Below, piece by piece: positions 7,051 through 52,963 of a stretch of DNA of 64,000 nucleotides. Below the pieces are notes generated by a model, which was not told the DNA's origin, searched no databases, and was given only the letters and a program-made list of their open reading frames with translations. This DNA is from Promethearchaeota archaeon. GTDB lineage: Archaea > Asgardarchaeota > Lokiarchaeia > Sigyniarchaeales > SOKP01. Where the stretch lies: the NCBI GenBank assembly GCA_020343655.1, contig CP070805.1, positions 2,086,676-2,150,675 of the forward strand, in the 5' to 3' direction. Every line of letters starts with the position of its first letter. Position 1 is the first letter of the stretch. Made by a program: the position numbers and the translations under genes.

Positions 7051-7692
7051 TTATTGTTGATCTTTTCTAAAATTAATATATAAAATTTTATTTTCTACCT
7101 CTTTAATTTTTGAAAGAGATATAGGTTTTATATTTTTCACTTCTTTAAATAATTCTATTATTTTATGTTTATCTCTTGATTTAGAATAAAAAGGAATGAT
7201 AAAAAAATCAACTTCCATGTTTTCAATGAATTCGAAATTGAAATCTTCTACTTTTTCCTCAACATTTTGAGGATGATCTATCATCAGAAAGGTTTTTCCC
7301 TTCCTAAGTGATTTATAGAAAGTTATAAAAGAGGAATCATCAAAAAATTTTCTGAAAAAAATTCCTGGAGTTGATTTCTTCCATTGTTCATTTTCAAGAA
7401 ATGATTCTTTTTTCGTATTGCTCAAAGCTTTCTCCAGAAGTAATGTTTGAGATCTTTCATCAGGGCCTAAATAACGTAATTTAGTACCCTCAAATTTAAT
7501 CAATACATGCTCTTTTTGAAAATATAAATATAAGTTATTTTCTTTTCTAATGGAATAAGATAAACAGAAAGTCTCTCTTATACAATTGCATAGTCTATAT
7601 ACATCAAAAGGAGTTTTTCCTAAGTCAATATCTCTTTTAGAATATTTTGATATATTTTCTATTAATAAAATGAAATTGACCAAAATAATCAA
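7051..7692 (-). CDS. trmY: tRNA (pseudouridine54-N1)-methyltransferase TrmY (SPOUT, DUF358)
   Basis: TTG start. LRYLGPDERSQTLLLEKAL and WKKSTPGIFFRK match the SPDERNIA..IKKAL and W.QSTPGIYVRR blocks I recall from M. jannaschii TrmY. Confidence 0.7.
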   Translation of the reverse strand: MIILVNFILLIENISKYSKRDIDLGKTPFDVYRLCNCIRETFCLSYSIRKENNLYLYFQKEHVLIKFEGTKLRYLGPDERSQTLLLEKALSNTKKESFLENEQWKKSTPGIFFRKFFDDSSFITFYKSLRKGKTFLMIDHPQNVEEKVEDFNFEFIENMEVDFFIIPFYSKSRDKHKIIELFKEVKNIKPISLSKIKEVENKILYINFRKDQQ

Positions 7693-40484: not shown

Positions 40485-40589
40485 GCAGACGTAGCCTAGC
40501 TGGTAAGACGCCGGCCTTGAGATTATTATGATATGAACAAGCTAGCCGGTGCGCGTGAGCGCTCGGGGGTTCGAGTCCCTCCGTCTGCG
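40485..40589 (+). tRNA. tRNA-Ser (anticodon UGA) with 22-nt intron at canonical 37/38 position
   Basis: The acceptor stem is GCAGACG/CGTCTGC and the anticodon stem is CCGGC/GCCGG. The loop is CTTGAG|intron 40522-40543|A. Anticodon-loop CTTG pairs with intron CAAG, leaving 3-nt bulges at both junctions. The variable arm is 15 nt. There is one C-A mismatch in the D stem. Confidence 0.85.
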
Positions 40590-46641: not shown

Positions 46642-48567
46642 TTACTTCAACTCCTTTAGTTTTTCTTTTATTGAATTTTCTAACTCCTTAGAAACAACAG
46701 CACCATCAACTTTTCCACGTACTTTTTTCATAACTTCTCCCATTAAGGGCCCTTTTGCTCGCATTTCTTTTTCTTTTATTATTTTAGAGTTATTGTTTAC
46801 TAATTCGGTTATCAATTGTTTAAGATCATCTATGGAAATACTCTCGATTTTTAATTTCTTTCTAATTTGACCAATAGAGAGTTCTGGGGTATCGGCTTTT
46901 AGGCTCATTATTTCTTCAATTGCTTCTTTACTAATTTTTTTTTCTTTTAGAAGGTTAAAGATTTCCGCAAAATCGTTGTCAGTAATATTTTCGATGTTTT
47001 TCCCGTCCCTTCTAAGAGCAGTTGTTGTTTCAAGTAGAGTTGTGAAAACTAATGAAGGATTCTCTGGATACAATTTTATTAAATTATCAAATAACTTGAG
47101 TTTTCCCGTAAAAATTAAGTCTTTTATGAATCTTTCCTCAATTTTGTATTTTTTAGAATACTGTTTAATTGTTACCCAAGGATATTCTGGAAGATTTTTT
47201 CTAATTTCATTGATTTCTTCTTCGGTATTAAAAATAGCTTCAGTATCAGTATCAGGATATAACCTTGCTCCTCCATGAAGTTCTCTTAAAAATTCTGTAT
47301 TACCATTCTCTAGAGCTCTTCTAGTCTCGGGAGGGACCCCCTTAAAAGCAAACTTAACTCGATTAATTATGACATTCATTGCTTTATTCACTTCTTTCTT
47401 TGATCCTAAAACTAATACAAAACAATCATTTTCTTTCGATTCTAATTTCTCTTTGATTTTTTTAATATCATCATTTGAGAAATTATATGTACTTAAATCT
47501 TCATCTGAATGAATAATGCCTCTTAGGCCAGAAATCAATTTTACTTTGCTACTAACTTCAGTACCAAATCTATAGTCTTCCATTAATTCTTTTCCAAATA
47601 AGCCCTTAAATCCACTGAAATTAATCCCAAATAATAATTTTCCTGATTTAATACCTTTAGTTATAAAATTGGATTTGGTTTTAGCTAAAGAATCAGTTAA
47701 ATCTACAGGATTATCTGGAATAGCGCTTTCATCTAATTTTCTTTTTTCAAGTTCTTCTTTAATTTCAAGTAGTTTTAATTGTCGTGAGATTTCATGATTG
47801 ATTAAGACGGGGATCCATCCTAATTTTTGAACTCCTTTTATTTCAATCCTAGTCCCTGCTTCAATACTAACATTAACATCTTGTCTAATTGATCCGAGAA
47901 CTTTTTTTACGTTTGTTGACCATAATAGTAATCCTATTCGTTCAGCGCATTCTCGACATTCCTCTGGTGTATTTATATCCGGCTTTGTTGTGACCTCTAT
48001 TAATGGAATTCCTAAGCGATCTAAACGAAAAAAATTCACTTTATTTTCTGTTTTAATTTTTCTCGCAGCCTCTTCCTCTAAACTTAAGATATCTAATCGA
48101 ATTTTTTTACCACTTTCTAAAGTTATGTAGCCATCAGTTCCAAGTATCATTGTACGTTGAAACCCGCATGGAACACTTCCATCAAGGTAGTTTTTTCTAC
48201 AAACATGCATTTCTTCAATTATATTAGCATTTAGAAGCATGGCAATTTGTAAAGCAATCATTCTAGCTTCTAAATTGCAGGAAAAGGGAGGAGTATCATC
48301 GAGTTCATAAGTACATACTACATCATTATATCCTTCATATGTAATTCCCATTCCCTTTTCGTATTCTGTAAGCATTGCTTTATCAAAAGTACCCATTTCA
48401 CCTAAAACAGGTCGCATTTTTCGCCTTATTGTAAAATCTGGGGCTCTAGTTCCCTGTAGTTTCGCAGGGCATCTACAAAATAATTTTTTTTCCGTGTCAA
48501 GCTGTTGATGGATCTCAAGCCCGCATTTAAGCCCCATTTTTTCATAATCATATTGTTCCATATTCAA
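46642..48567 (-). CDS. gatE: Glu-tRNA(Gln) amidotransferase subunit E
   Basis: Has the GLKCGLEIHQQL N-terminus and a GatB/E-like core plus insertion domain. Length is 641 aa. Confidence 0.9.
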   Translation of the reverse strand: MNMEQYDYEKMGLKCGLEIHQQLDTEKKLFCRCPAKLQGTRAPDFTIRRKMRPVLGEMGTFDKAMLTEYEKGMGITYEGYNDVVCTYELDDTPPFSCNLEARMIALQIAMLLNANIIEEMHVCRKNYLDGSVPCGFQRTMILGTDGYITLESGKKIRLDILSLEEEAARKIKTENKVNFFRLDRLGIPLIEVTTKPDINTPEECRECAERIGLLLWSTNVKKVLGSIRQDVNVSIEAGTRIEIKGVQKLGWIPVLINHEISRQLKLLEIKEELEKRKLDESAIPDNPVDLTDSLAKTKSNFITKGIKSGKLLFGINFSGFKGLFGKELMEDYRFGTEVSSKVKLISGLRGIIHSDEDLSTYNFSNDDIKKIKEKLESKENDCFVLVLGSKKEVNKAMNVIINRVKFAFKGVPPETRRALENGNTEFLRELHGGARLYPDTDTEAIFNTEEEINEIRKNLPEYPWVTIKQYSKKYKIEERFIKDLIFTGKLKLFDNLIKLYPENPSLVFTTLLETTTALRRDGKNIENITDNDFAEIFNLLKEKKISKEAIEEIMSLKADTPELSIGQIRKKLKIESISIDDLKQLITELVNNNSKIIKEKEMRAKGPLMGEVMKKVRGKVDGAVVSKELENSIKEKLKELK

Positions 48568-48681: not shown

Positions 48682-49779
48682 TTATAACGAAGTATTTATA
48701 GTTAATAATTTTAAGTAATAAAGTCCCTCTTTCTGAGAAATCTCAGTATAATTTGAAAGATAATTTAGTAGCAATTGTTTTTGTTCCAGATTTTTTTCGA
48801 TAGATTGTTCAACTTGAAAAGAGAGATCTTTTAAATTTTCAATTCTAATCCAATGTATTTTATTAAAAAACAATAATAATTTACTGAGAAAATCTTCCTT
48901 TGTTCCAAATTTCTGCAAATCTTTCTCGATACTTCTAATCCATTTGGTAAAAGCATTTTCACTCTTAAAACTTATAAATAAATCGTTGTCTTCTGCTAAA
49001 TTCATCCATAAATACTTATCTTTATCATCAAGCATTCTATTATAATTTACGATGTATTCTATATTTTCATTTAGCAATTTTATCCTTTCTTTCTTGGCTA
49101 ATTCTTTTTTAAACAGGAGATCTGTCTCTAATAAATCCAATCTACAATAATAGTCTGTAGGTGAATATATAAAATCAGTTACTTTTATTCCTAACATTCC
49201 AAGTACGGCTGCAAAGAATTTGCAATTTTCATAATGAAGATTTCTTTGTGTCCCAATAAATTCTAAAACTCCTTGCGCAGGTCTGTTATTTTCATCTGGA
49301 ATAATTTCCAAGTTCCATTCTTTAGAAATATTTGAAAGGTTAACTCTTGTTCTTAATCTTTCATATAATATTCTAAGATCATCATAATTCTGTGATCTAA
49401 ACTGTCTCTTCAAGAAATTTAAATAGGTTAATAGAAAACGAGTAGTAAATTCAAAAGAAAAGGGTGTATATCTATTAGACTCTGAAACCATTTCATAAAG
49501 TGGTATTGTGGCGCGGAAAGTGAATGGTTCAAAGAAATCTTTAACCTCTTTATCCTCTACTCTGGCAAAATCATCAAGAGTCTTACCCTTCTTAAATAAT
49601 TCCAATATATTCTCCATGATATAGTTATAAAAAGCTGATACGCTTTGAAATCTTTCATCATTAGGATTCTTTTTGTGATTGACATTTACATATCTTTTTA
49701 TCCAATCTTTGAGAGCAGGTGATATTGAAATCGTTTGTTGGCTAGTTTTCTTATCTGAAAGATATTTTTTAGAGGTCAT
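48682..49779 (-). CDS. Uncharacterised protein, paralog A (RHH-like N-terminus)
   Basis: QQTISISPALKDWIKRYV....RFQSVSAFYNYIMENIL looks like strand-helix-helix. The protein aligns along its whole length with ORF 50157..51242. Confidence 0.6.
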   Translation of the reverse strand: MTSKKYLSDKKTSQQTISISPALKDWIKRYVNVNHKKNPNDERFQSVSAFYNYIMENILELFKKGKTLDDFARVEDKEVKDFFEPFTFRATIPLYEMVSESNRYTPFSFEFTTRFLLTYLNFLKRQFRSQNYDDLRILYERLRTRVNLSNISKEWNLEIIPDENNRPAQGVLEFIGTQRNLHYENCKFFAAVLGMLGIKVTDFIYSPTDYYCRLDLLETDLLFKKELAKKERIKLLNENIEYIVNYNRMLDDKDKYLWMNLAEDNDLFISFKSENAFTKWIRSIEKDLQKFGTKEDFLSKLLLFFNKIHWIRIENLKDLSFQVEQSIEKNLEQKQLLLNYLSNYTEISQKEGLYYLKLLTINTSL

Positions 49780-50043
49780 AATTCCAAATATTTTACCTAA
49801 TTTTTAAATTTATAATAGTTGAGAAATTTAAAAATTTAAGAGTATTTCTGATAAAGAAGAAATTATATAATTAAAAAGATATTTATAAGATACGATTTTT
49901 TCTAATGATATATTTCCATTTCTATTCTACTTGTATATTCTTTTTAGGATTACCTATTATTAAAATTATAAGTTAGAAAAGTTAATATTAAGTTTTAAAT
50001 ATCCTCTTGAAAAATTATATTTGGGCAATTTTTAAAGATAAGA

Positions 50044-50134
50044 ACCAAGGGGATGACAGGAGAGCCTTGCCAGGAAGGTAAAAAGGGGAGAAAATCTATA
50101 GGGGCAAGGAGGGGGAGATCCTACCTTTTTTTTT
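50044..50134 (+). ncRNA. Candidate small structured RNA or regulatory element (G+C/purine-rich island ending in T9)
   Basis: About 54% G+C by hand count over ~82 nt, versus about 30% in the flanks. CCTTGCC (50065-50071) is complementary to GGCAAGG (50103-50109). Nine T residues occupy 50126-50134. The strand assignment is tentative. Confidence 0.25.
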
Positions 50135-50156: not shown

Positions 50157-51242
50157 CTAAGAAGCTAGAGGCTCTAGGTGGTATTTCCCATTTATATGTG
50201 AAACTTTTGATTTTTTTGAAAGAATCTTTAATAAGGATTCTCTTTCAGATTGATATTTGGATTTTAATAATCTGATTTGAAAGATTAAGTCTTTCTCACT
50301 TTCAATTTCAATCCAATGTAATTTCTCAAAGAATTTTAAAAAATTGAGATGAAATTCCTCTTCTTCTCCAAATTTCTCAATTTCACTTTCTATTAATTTT
50401 ACCCATTCTTGTTTGGTTTCTTCATTATTAAAAGTAATGATTATATTTTTATCATTAGCTAATTTCATCCATAAGTAGTAATCTTTATCATTTATAATTC
50501 TATTGTAATTGATGAAAAATGAAAGATTATGTTCCATAAGGTTGATTCTTTCTTTTTTTGCTAAATCCTTTATAAAAAATAAATCTGTTGCTTTTAAATC
50601 GAATCTACAATAATCTTCTTTACGTGAATATAGAAAATTTGTAATTTTAGTTCCTAATAATCCGAAAAATGCAGCTGAGAATTTATAATTTTCATAACAC
50701 AAATTTTCATATAATCCCGCATGTTCAAAGATTCCTGATAAATCTTTAATGCCTTTTCCAGTAAAAAGATCTAATCTAAATTCCTTAGAAAGATTGTTTG
50801 AAAATACATAGTTTCTCACTCGATTAAATATGGTTTTTATGCTAGTAATATCATATGGATCCATCCGGGATGTGTATATCCTTCTAAGTGTGAAGTAGAA
50901 AAAGGGATTTCTCTCAAGAGTGGGACTTGTATAACGATTTGTTCTTATTGCATTTTCGTAATAGGGTATTAAGGCACTAAAAGATATGTTTTGGAAAATA
51001 TCTTTTATTTCAGTATCAACAAATGCTTCGAAGTCATCAAGTGTTTTACCCTTTTCAAGGATATTCATTGTTTTATCCAAAACATAGTTATAAAAGGCAG
51101 AAATACTTTTGAACCTTTTATCTTCCGGATGTTGTTTATATTTTTCATTAACATATCCTTCGATTTTATTTTTAAGTGCCGGTGAAATAGAAATCGTTTG
51201 CTGGGTGATTTTCTTTTTTGATAAGGGTCTTTCTGTAGACAT
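50157..51242 (-). CDS. Uncharacterised protein, paralog B (RHH-like N-terminus)
   Basis: QQTISISPALKNKIEGYV....RFKSISAFYNYVLDKTM. It shares blocks with paralog A, including KGKTLDDF, NRYT, YEN.KF.AA..G.LG.K.T.F.YS, LAKKERI and YLWM.LA. Confidence 0.6.
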   Translation of the reverse strand: MSTERPLSKKKITQQTISISPALKNKIEGYVNEKYKQHPEDKRFKSISAFYNYVLDKTMNILEKGKTLDDFEAFVDTEIKDIFQNISFSALIPYYENAIRTNRYTSPTLERNPFFYFTLRRIYTSRMDPYDITSIKTIFNRVRNYVFSNNLSKEFRLDLFTGKGIKDLSGIFEHAGLYENLCYENYKFSAAFFGLLGTKITNFLYSRKEDYCRFDLKATDLFFIKDLAKKERINLMEHNLSFFINYNRIINDKDYYLWMKLANDKNIIITFNNEETKQEWVKLIESEIEKFGEEEEFHLNFLKFFEKLHWIEIESEKDLIFQIRLLKSKYQSERESLLKILSKKSKVSHINGKYHLEPLAS

Positions 51243-51334: not shown

Positions 51335-52963
51335 TTAAAGTACTTTAGAAACATAGACTCCATCTAAATTATATCCCATTTCATAGAACCAATCTCTTGC
51401 TCCGATTCCACTTATTACAGCTAACTTTTTTGCATCAAACTCTTCAAAAGATATCTTTTCAGCGTTTTCCATTAATAGTTTTCCAAAACCTCTATGTTGA
51501 ATTTGAGTGTATCGATTTGGTTTTAAATCTTTTGGAACAAGTTCACCCACTACTTTGATTTCTCTTACAATCATAGTTTTTCCATCATTTAATTCTGGTC
51601 TATGAGCGAATTCTGAGGGTTTTCTTAAGCGTAAATATCCAATTAAATAATCTTCGTTTTTATTCTCATAAGACAAGAATATTTCTTTCCCTTGAGAAGC
51701 ATCATAATCTAATCGATACAGTTTAACTTCGTCCAAAGATTTTTCATCGATAATTTCTTTTCTTTTACTGATACCGTACTCTTTGCATCTAATGCATTTA
51801 CAAGTTTCATTTATTTCTTTTAATCTTTCTTGTACCAACTGCCTTAAATTGCTATTTTTACATCCTGCTTCAATTAACGTAGCAGGGATGTCTCTCATAA
51901 TTCTTTGAATTCTAACATATGGAGGAAGATCAGTCTTAACCTTTGCTATTAAATCTATTAATTCTTTATCAGAATATGGAGTATATTTGCCCTTTTTCCA
52001 CCAATTGTATAATTCAGTACCACTTATTACTAGGGTAGGATAAATCTTTAACATATCAGGTCGATATTCTGGAATAGAAAATAAAATATCAAATAATTCT
52101 AAATCTTTATCGATACTTGAACCTGGTAAATTTGGCATTATGTGTGCGTTAATTTTTAATCCTGCATCTTTAGCAATCCTTATCGATTCAATGCTATCAG
52201 CGGTTGTATGCCCTCTCTTTATTAAATCATAGATTTCATTATAAATAGTTTGGATACCGATTTCAACTCGAGTAGTTCCAAAGTTTAACATATCATCAAT
52301 ATGTGTTTCCTTGCAATAATCTGGTCTTGTCTCAACAGTTATACCTATAACCCTTCTTTTGGATTTTTCTGCCACTATCTTGGCTTCTTCTAAACTGCCT
52401 GTTTTCTGTTCTATTATTCCTTCTAATGCCCCTTTAACGAATTCTGTTTGATAGTTCTGATCAGTTGATAAGAATGTCCCACCCATTATGATTAATTCGA
52501 TTTTATCTACAGCATGACCAATAGATTCTAAATCCTTAATTCTACTTTGGACTTGTAAGTAAGAATCATAATTGTTATGAATAGATCTCATAGCTGCTGG
52601 TTCTTGACCTGTATAAGATTGGGCTACTTTTTCTCCAGGCTGAGAATCTTGCCCTGGACAATATACACAAGTTCCAGGACAAGGAAGAGGTTTTGTCATA
52701 ATAGCTATAACAGATACACCAGATAAAGTTCTGGTTTTTCTTCTCTTAAGAATCTGGGTAATTATTAGTTTTTCTTGTTCCGTTGCAAAATCCAGGATTG
52801 TTGCATTTTTAATGACTTTATTGTATCTATATTTTTTTCCTATTCTACCTTTTATATTAGTAATTTTTTCTCTTGGAGTTTCTGGATTCCTTATTAAATA
52901 ATTTATGATCTCTCTTGAAATAAGTTTAATTTTTTCAGGAAATTCAGTTTTTTCTTGTACCAT
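51335..52963 (-). CDS. elp3: Elp3-type radical SAM / GNAT tRNA modification enzyme
   Basis: Has the radical SAM cluster motif CPGTCVYCPG and a C-terminal GNAT domain with QHRGFGKLLM. Confidence 0.9.
   Translation of the reverse strand: MVQEKTEFPEKIKLISREIINYLIRNPETPREKITNIKGRIGKKYRYNKVIKNATILDFATEQEKLIITQILKRRKTRTLSGVSVIAIMTKPLPCPGTCVYCPGQDSQPGEKVAQSYTGQEPAAMRSIHNNYDSYLQVQSRIKDLESIGHAVDKIELIIMGGTFLSTDQNYQTEFVKGALEGIIEQKTGSLEEAKIVAEKSKRRVIGITVETRPDYCKETHIDDMLNFGTTRVEIGIQTIYNEIYDLIKRGHTTADSIESIRIAKDAGLKINAHIMPNLPGSSIDKDLELFDILFSIPEYRPDMLKIYPTLVISGTELYNWWKKGKYTPYSDKELIDLIAKVKTDLPPYVRIQRIMRDIPATLIEAGCKNSNLRQLVQERLKEINETCKCIRCKEYGISKRKEIIDEKSLDEVKLYRLDYDASQGKEIFLSYENKNEDYLIGYLRLRKPSEFAHRPELNDGKTMIVREIKVVGELVPKDLKPNRYTQIQHRGFGKLLMENAEKISFEEFDAKKLAVISGIGARDWFYEMGYNLDGVYVSKVL

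Follow-up and report, generated by a model that had tools for sequence, protein, structure and literature searches.

What is a purine-rich, G+C-rich island doing between two paralogous genes, in intergenic DNA that is otherwise rich in A and T? The locus belongs to a Promethearchaeota archaeon of the Lokiarchaeia (GenBank assembly GCA_020343655.1, contig CP070805.1), and we analysed it within a stretch of 64,000 nucleotides (positions 2,086,676 to 2,150,675), here called the window, whose own numbering is used throughout. The two paralogs, P1 upstream and P2 downstream, are members of one protein family (P) and lie on the minus strand; a first-pass annotation, made from the letters alone, had proposed the island between them as a small RNA or a regulatory element. 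We found that the island is a strongly conserved non-coding element. From the comparative evidence, it is most likely an undescribed small RNA gene that represents a candidate family of Lokiarchaeia-type Asgard archaea, always beside the lineage-specific P gene. The island would probably be the body of this gene, non-coding and independently transcribed from the plus strand at about 50023-50134.

At the level of composition, the island is as it was first described. Its 82 nucleotides (50044-50125) have 53.7% G+C and 73.2% purine on the plus strand and are followed by nine T residues (50126-50134); letters, G+C content, purine bias and T-run were all confirmed over 50044-50134. The G+C content is 29.8% for the window and 23.0% for its intergenic DNA, and around the island the spacer has 15-19%, lower than the 25-30% of the first estimate. 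Among 6192 fully intergenic 80-nt segments, a G+C fraction of at least 0.50 was reached only in two tRNA clusters (at 39.5 and 40.5 kb) and over 50035-50130, and the top purine fraction, 0.79, was that of the island. The remark that comparable G+C islands coincide with tRNAs is right for intergenic DNA, the remaining G+C-rich stretches of the window being located within open reading frames (ORFs).

Is the island kept in other genomes? We used the paralog alignment to scan one genome per GTDB species and obtained 32 Asgard loci. In every locus with both paralogs and sufficient sequence, the island is found just after the P1 stop codon, and the gene order ELP3 - P1 - island - P2 - GatE is constant in such two-paralog loci. 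Altogether, the island is kept in more than 25 related genomes and metagenome contigs. A covariance model built on 15 close homologs (R1) retrieved the element at the same place in 25 Asgard loci, as a single copy in each and with 42-138 bits; the comparison of related spacers that the first-pass annotation had suggested speaks for conservation. R1 detected no second copy in the window or in the loci, and its weak 30-nt matches elsewhere fell inside coding sequence. The element is also present in the LCGC14 marine-sediment assembly GCA_000986845.1, which we take to be Lokiarchaeum sp. GC14_75 (JYIM01000451.1, locus L096, 2655-2763; 45.9 bits, E = 3.8e-9 with R1). Moreover, a metagenome-wide scan with a two-block DNA pattern gave 62 matches, six of them true homologs, and all six had the ELP3-P1-x-P2-GatE context.

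Across 23 spacers, identity to the window residue was 0.77-0.83 over 50010-50060 and 0.73 at 50110-50119, and just beyond the T-run it fell to a background of 0.35-0.49. The best-conserved 5' block matches the conservation level of the N-terminal coding region of P2, and the proteins flanking the island are only 59-81% identical across the genomes that keep it. Because the island is conserved like coding sequence while the adjacent spacer decayed, we consider it to be under selection and not a decayed remnant. It accepts indels of 1-2 nt and has no conserved start codon, which does not fit a degraded coding sequence, one of the outcomes that the first-pass annotation had named as fatal to its proposal. 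Conserved above all are the primary sequence GAUAAAAAUCAAGGGGAUGACAGGAG and repeated A-tract/G-tract modules, and invariant alignment columns are present within the 5' domain.

50023-50062, plus strand: best-conserved 5' domain, predicted unpaired, holding GAUAAGAACCAAGGGG (consensus GAUAAAAAUCAAGGGG) and AUGACAGGAG.

Motifs expected of a promoter and of a terminator on the plus strand are found at the two ends of the element.

49994-50001, plus strand: TATA box TTTAAATA of the proposed small RNA promoter, matching TTTAWATA at 8 of 8 positions.
50023-50134, plus strand: proposed small RNA transcription unit of about 105-112 nt, with G50023 as predicted transcription start site and a predicted 3' end in the U9 tract.
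50126-50134, plus strand: U9 tract, the proposed plus-strand termination signal, with a T-run in the homologs.

Archaeal TATA boxes are centred about 26 nt upstream of the start site. Counting from the first G of the nearly invariant TTGGGCAA box (the conserved GGG), the best TTTAWATA match (7-8 of 8) starts at -29 in 18 of the 25 homologs and at -27 in four. This spacing is the expected archaeal distance, and we therefore place the start near G50023; the transcript would probably begin about 21 nt upstream of where the island had first been taken to start. In the earlier description, A/T boxes were set 20-35 nt upstream of the island, a distance to be corrected to the 43-50 nt of the conserved TATA box. 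Between the GGG and an imperfect terminal hairpin, the homologs present about 95-105 nt of purine-rich sequence. Behind the hairpin, at least four T residues follow in 25 of 25 homologs and at least five in 23, in agreement with the initial view of the T9 as a plus-strand termination signal.

U-tracts of 4-7 residues are the archaeal terminator signal, and the aCPSF1 of Lokiarchaeum cooperates with them (PMC8716108). Thus, two features of an independent archaeal transcription unit are present, a TATA box at the proper distance from the predicted start and a U-tract at the 3' end. Several U4-U6 tracts are located on the gene strand of the same region, so only the plus sense can be transcribed through; a long leader on the gene strand, such as had also been considered, would be stopped. 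We infer transcription itself, and its strand, from these signals.

Two further observations concern the 3' end of the element. In the terminal hairpin loop (50117-50121 in the window and the same position in homologs), AGATC/GATC hardly varies, and a weak downstream motif of termination in Haloferax volcanii has the sequence AGATC (PMC7237163). At locus L002 (about 7086-7110), a T8 and directly after it an A8 run lie between the P1 stop and the RNA 3' end; the pattern resembles two terminators placed back to back, one for each direction, and departs from most homologs.

What kind of RNA would this be? In the window-type element the sequence is conserved more than the structure, and the proposed RNA is purine-rich and would be mostly unpaired. 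Its candidate helices are the following.

50065-50109, plus strand: long-range stem of the first-pass annotation, CCTTGCC with GGCAAGG, whose perfect 7-bp form is window-specific.
50065-50086, plus strand: candidate central hairpin with pairs U67-A81, U68-A80, G69-U79, C70-G78 and C71-G77 and loop 50072-50076.
50106-50127, plus strand: imperfect terminal hairpin (AAGGAGGG, loop GGAGAU, CCUACCUU), in all homologs.

For the long-range stem, both arms (50065-50071 and 50103-50109) were verified at their positions, and the pairing itself found no support. Among 15 homologs, 80% of the cells pair with no two-sided change, covariation does not exceed that of shuffles, and the pair 54-88 is unpaired in 12 of the 15. 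Of the small RNA first proposed, the discrete non-coding plus-strand element ending at the T-run fits the homologs, but its specific stem is unsupported.

The central hairpin shares its 5' arm with the long-range stem, and C65/C66 may additionally pair with G85/G86. In the same 15 homologs, 92% of its cells pair, with no compensatory change. The central module is lost as a unit in L014 and L016 and swapped for hairpins of different sequence in L096, L010 and L025; such deletion or replacement is suggestive of a real module, not proof of one. For the terminal hairpin, 85% of the cells pair; G-U pairs are frequent, covariation stays within that of shuffles, and the plus-strand fold is at least as stable as the minus-strand one in 18 of 20 homologs. 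Summed hairpin energies are -131.8 kcal/mol on the plus strand and -104.6 kcal/mol on the minus strand. Since there are more G-U than A-C pairs, pairing in the two candidate hairpins is slightly favoured on the plus strand (69 vs. 60 and 102 vs. 96 paired cells).

Other folds were also considered. An alternative closing helix of AAGGGGAU with AUCC..CCUU is possible by eye in about two-thirds of the close homologs, with one apparent compensatory event (L003/L005), and the folds of individual homologs are mutually inconsistent. At least four G3+ tracts are present in 20 of the 25 homologs and a canonical G-quadruplex in one, and a quadruplex role is a weak possibility.

Is the element tied to the ELP3/GatE neighbourhood or to the P gene? 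Where ELP3 and GatE enclose only one P gene (L017-L020, L032), a related, shorter purine-rich island is found between ELP3 and P. Loci L026 and L103 contain a colinear version with a terminal hairpin of the GAGGGCGA type and a T5 run. Furthermore, strongly structured elements, at the same relative place and in the same orientation, accompany P homologs that lie away from ELP3/GatE and have only 36-42% identity. The element of L030 (4064-4207, minus strand) presents a 14-bp closing stem and two 7-bp hairpins (minimum free energy (MFE) -41.4, z = -5.7), and that of L100 (1021-1156, minus strand) a 9-bp closing stem and four hairpins (z = -3.2), followed by T7. Their closing helices have the outer CUCC/GGAG in common, whereas the five inner pairs differ (AGUCA/UGACU vs. 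UGCGG/CCGCA) and still pair; elements of this type are too few for covariation statistics. A 19-nt motif, AAAGACAAAAAUCCAGGGU, is also common to both.

Rfam gave no match for the structured elements beside the distant P homologs. The window-type RNA profile matched distant elements weakly and at exactly the expected spot (E = 0.056 for L026, 0.36 for L030 and 3.2 for L100). Homology of the window-type RNA to the L030 and L100 elements is plausible, though short of proof. What recurs is a P gene with, upstream of it, a small RNA-like element in opposite orientation, and the linkage would thus appear to be to the P gene rather than to the ELP3/GatE neighbourhood.

Further strongly structured RNA-like elements were observed upstream of distant P homologs in L029 (1-107, minus strand) and L101 (1069-1187, minus strand). 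In L100, about 710-870 nt upstream of the P start and on the strand opposite P, we also noted a G+C-rich stretch with a tRNA-like start (CCCCCCTTAGCTCAGTTGGTCAGAGCGC...) and a long insert, which may be an intron-containing tRNA.

Several results weigh against a plus-strand small RNA. At the structural level, the RNAalifold consensus structure is empty, MFE z-scores of +0.46 (plus) and -0.52 (minus) are no better than shuffles, and the covariation of the long-range, central and terminal helices does not exceed shuffled controls. The profile homology to the L030 and L100 elements is marginal at the E values given above. Among the transcription signals, the orientation of the TATA box does not decide the matter, as the box is close to a palindrome, and an archaeal polymerase could already be stopped by the T5-T6 run of 50030-50034 (about +8 to +12). 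A terminator scan returned no canonical hairpin-plus-T site here, although it is of a bacterial type that is uninformative for an archaeon. The single-P genomes L017-L020 finish the plus sense with an A-run and not with a T-run, and the strand and both transcript ends are predictions from sequence. No target signal was obtained in a search that covered the 64 kb and a few neighbouring genes: with RNAduplex, the best of 62 start regions in the window reached -44.4 (shuffles -40.1 +/- 3.7), and complementarity to the starts of ELP3, P1, P2 and GatE in up to 19 genomes gave mean z-scores of -0.62 to +0.39.

Could the island instead serve the genes on the opposite strand? Read in this way, it would be the 3' untranslated region and multi-U-tract terminator or insulator of the gene upstream, which is P1 or, in single-P genomes, ELP3; its repeated [C-tract][U-tract] modules would block read-through into P2.

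50157-51242, minus strand: P1, the upstream paralog of 361 amino acids, which runs towards the small RNA and has a stop codon that begins 22 nt past the T-run.
50080-50094, minus strand: two U-tracts inside the small RNA gene, U4 (50094-50091) and U5 (50084-50080).

On the gene strand, the island reads as CCCCUUUUU-type modules, of which the A-tract/G-tract modules of the plus strand are the mirror image. The first tract of at least four U residues after the P1 stop is inside the island in 16 of 18 genomes, 41-87 nt into the aligned RNA region, and the most efficient archaeal terminators carry at least two U4 tracts (PMC8716108). However, conservation is highest in a block past those U-tracts (50037-50062), which in the window no longer has a U-run of its own, and the fixed TATA-to-GGG spacing and the opposite-strand T-run of all 25 homologs are left unexplained. 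Moreover, L017-L020 already have a gene-strand T9 terminator ahead of the island, and a plain terminator does not need the closing helices of the L030 and L100 relatives. We regard this explanation as unlikely.

A minus-strand terminator role may well coexist with the plus-strand RNA and need not replace it. The U-tracts at 50080-50094 are the likely terminator of the P1 mRNA, and parts of the CU-rich 3' untranslated region proposed in the first-pass annotation are probably also true, since the first U-tracts of P1 fall within the island. Because these tracts are inside the RNA gene, an overlap of about 45-60 nt with the 3' half of the RNA is expected for the convergent P1 transcript, provided that both strands are transcribed.

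A second alternative dispenses with a functional RNA. The region would control the P2 promoter at the DNA level, its array of sites (an operator or upstream activating sequence) being bound by the P protein or some other factor.

48682-49779, minus strand: P2, the downstream paralog of 365 amino acids, divergent from the small RNA promoter, with the predicted starts about 245 nt apart.
49982-49991, no strand assigned: perfect palindrome TTAATATTAA, directly upstream of the TATA box in the position of a B recognition element (BRE) or operator; present in most close homologs.
49882-49898, minus strand: conserved box AAATCGTATCTTATAAA (consensus AAATGTATCTTGTAAAA) between the divergent promoters, in all spacers (conservation 0.69-0.74).

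Sequence conservation above that of structure is in line with this explanation, and so are the palindrome and the further conserved boxes of the spacer, of which 49882-49898 is a candidate operator. The P gene that always accompanies the element also has an N-terminus that looks ribbon-helix-helix-like by eye only, unsupported by Pfam. Nevertheless, the island is about 265-350 nt from the P2 start, which is far for an archaeal operator, and we identified no repeated operator-like motif. The conserved hairpin and T-run at the end, with a well-placed TATA box ahead, do not fit, and neither do the relatives whose 9-14-bp closing helices changed on both strands and have significant folding z-scores. 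A purely DNA-level role therefore seems quite improbable to us.

A small protein was also a candidate, encoded by a 28-codon ORF from ATG 50053 to TAA 50137-50139. The window and some homologs (17-39 codons) keep this frame open, and a G-rich stretch directly precedes it. Among the 25 homologs, however, conserved start, frame and length are all missing: the ATG is present in 13, indels of 1 and 2 nt break the frame, and ORF length varies between 6 and 39 codons. No spacer separates the G-rich stretch from the ATG, and a purine-rich sequence is poor in stop codons by composition alone. We rejected this candidate as very improbable. A chance compositional island, or a functionless decayed remnant of coding or rRNA sequence, is close to negligible, its sole point being the missing significant fold, against conservation across genomes while the adjacent spacer decayed and a 16S rRNA likeness equal to that of shuffles.

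The small RNA gene thus stays our preferred explanation, and we compared the element with known RNA families. At the gathering threshold, an Rfam 15 scan of the whole window returned only four tRNAs; the covariance-model scan that the first-pass annotation had recommended therefore leaves the island without a family, and Rfam found nothing on the related loci. A permissive scan of the spacer gave PrrB_RsmZ (RF00166) with 20.9 bits (local E = 0.009, threshold 44), a sub-threshold score driven by GGA motifs and the 3' hairpin with its U-run, plus one noise match. No tRNA or tRNA-like fold was detected at the element, ARAGORN and Rfam RF00005 placing tRNAs only at 39.5-40.7 kb. Among the 25 homologs, the C box (RUGAUGA) of C/D box small RNAs occurs in none and CUGA, misplaced, in two; the ACA of H/ACA small RNAs near the 3' end of the body is found in none, and no conserved pocket hairpin was seen. 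Literature searches retrieved no description of such an RNA in Asgard archaea, and no regulatory or structural Asgard RNAs beyond the universal ones.

Two other candidates were tried and rejected. A mimic or relic of the 16S rRNA 3' end (AAGGUA/AGGGGAA/GCGG/GAUC/CUCCU) scored like shuffles in Smith-Waterman alignments (mean z = -0.07). As for a reading of CAAUUUUUA as an Sm site, its U-run is not kept in the wider family (L014, L016). Apart from the island, Rfam reported a 105-nt tRNA at 40485-40589 on the plus strand (43.3 bits) that ARAGORN did not; it is located in a tRNA cluster and is probably an intron-containing archaeal tRNA.

Among described RNAs, the intergenic trans-acting small RNAs known from Methanosarcina, Haloferax and Sulfolobus are comparable in that they are about 100 nt long and non-coding, with their own TATA box, a U-tract terminator and a conserved unpaired segment as possible seed. 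The element has no sequence or Rfam relation to them, and it differs in being unusually purine-rich, weakly folded and locked to one protein family, with no target found. With the CsrB/RsmZ sponge RNAs, the element shares short purine repeats (GGA/GGGG) along its length and a 3' hairpin with a U-run. Its motifs, however, are not presented by a series of hairpin loops, consensus hairpins being limited to two candidates. CsrA/RsmA is a bacterial protein, and we know of no archaeal counterpart. The resemblance would be at most a functional analogy.

In the copy control of plasmid pMV158, the ribbon-helix-helix repressor CopG acts together with the countertranscript RNAII. The likeness lies in an antisense small RNA from the spacer of co-directional genes, ending in a hairpin and U-run, next to a gene that is possibly of the ribbon-helix-helix type. 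Here, in contrast, the locus is chromosomal with housekeeping synteny and the RNA sequence is conserved; the element misses the downstream translation start and overlaps instead the predicted 3' untranslated region of the upstream gene. Finally, Klein, Misulovin and Eddy reportedly described in 2002 the Hgc RNAs, non-coding RNAs in G+C islands of A+T-rich archaea, and our element likewise is a G+C-rich island in A+T-rich intergenic DNA, alongside tRNAs. The Hgc RNAs are G+C-rich through stable folding and several are H/ACA guides, whereas this element has neither a significant fold nor H/ACA or C/D boxes.

Regarding the surrounding genes, P1 and P2 are 43% identical, and their neighbours are ELP3 (51335-52963) and GatE (46642-48567). 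Sequence searches of Pfam, NCBIfam and PDB gave no match for P1 or P2. All 262 relatives of P2 are hypothetical proteins by annotation, and all are from Asgard/Lokiarchaeia-type metagenome-assembled genomes and metagenomes. A confident AlphaFold2 model of P2 (predicted local distance difference test (pLDDT) 80, predicted template modelling score (pTM) 0.71) retrieved with Foldseek against PDB a best match of only E = 0.067. The P2 promoter has its own box.

49801-49814, minus strand: TATA-like box of P2, about 23 nt upstream of the ATG (conservation 0.80-0.86).

This distance to the ATG suggests a leaderless or near-leaderless P2 mRNA. Insertions of 1.2-2.6 kb were observed between P2 and GatE in L003 (8533-11155), L021 (2232-4848) and L025 (8481-9706); those of L003 and L021 contain coding sequence, so synteny is not rigid on the GatE side.

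How could such an RNA work? We propose that transcription would be driven by the TATA box at 49994-50001, start at the conserved GGG and end at the U9 after the imperfect hairpin. The product would be a member of a small RNA family tied to the Lokiarchaeia-specific P protein family, its gene lying a few hundred nucleotides upstream of an oppositely transcribed P gene (here P2) and converging on the upstream gene (here P1). We favour an RNA acting in trans because sequence rather than structure is conserved, and a pure antisense role would not constrain sequence. It would act through its conserved single-stranded A-tract/G-tract modules (GAYAAAAAUCMAGGGG and repeats). Such modules may form a platform that binds a protein, of which the linked P protein is the most plausible; a role as seed for CU-rich RNA targets is less likely. 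The convergent overlap with the P1 transcript might add a coupling by antisense or transcription interference. This whole mode of action is inferred.

In a more speculative version, which we find rather unlikely, the P protein and the RNA would form a dedicated Lokiarchaeia-specific RNA-protein module, either as a ribonucleoprotein (RNP) or with an RNA that titrates or guides P. The compact multi-hairpin form of L030 and L100 would then be ancestral, and the purine-rich form of the window derived.

As it stands, the element is a concrete candidate with clear limits, conserved in Lokiarchaeia-type genomes, among them the founding LCGC14 assembly, and its predicted ends can be tested directly. 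Should the minus-strand reading be true, the island would stand as a conserved case in which a multi-U-tract insulator separates the tandem genes of an Asgard archaeon. If the small RNA is confirmed, it would give entry to a lineage-specific RNA-protein system and provide a covariance model for annotating these genomes. And if the RNA-protein module holds, its conserved position between tRNA-related genes (ELP3, GatE/GatD) would point to a role, RNA-dependent and so far unrecognised, in the translation or tRNA metabolism of those archaea that are most closely related to eukaryotes.

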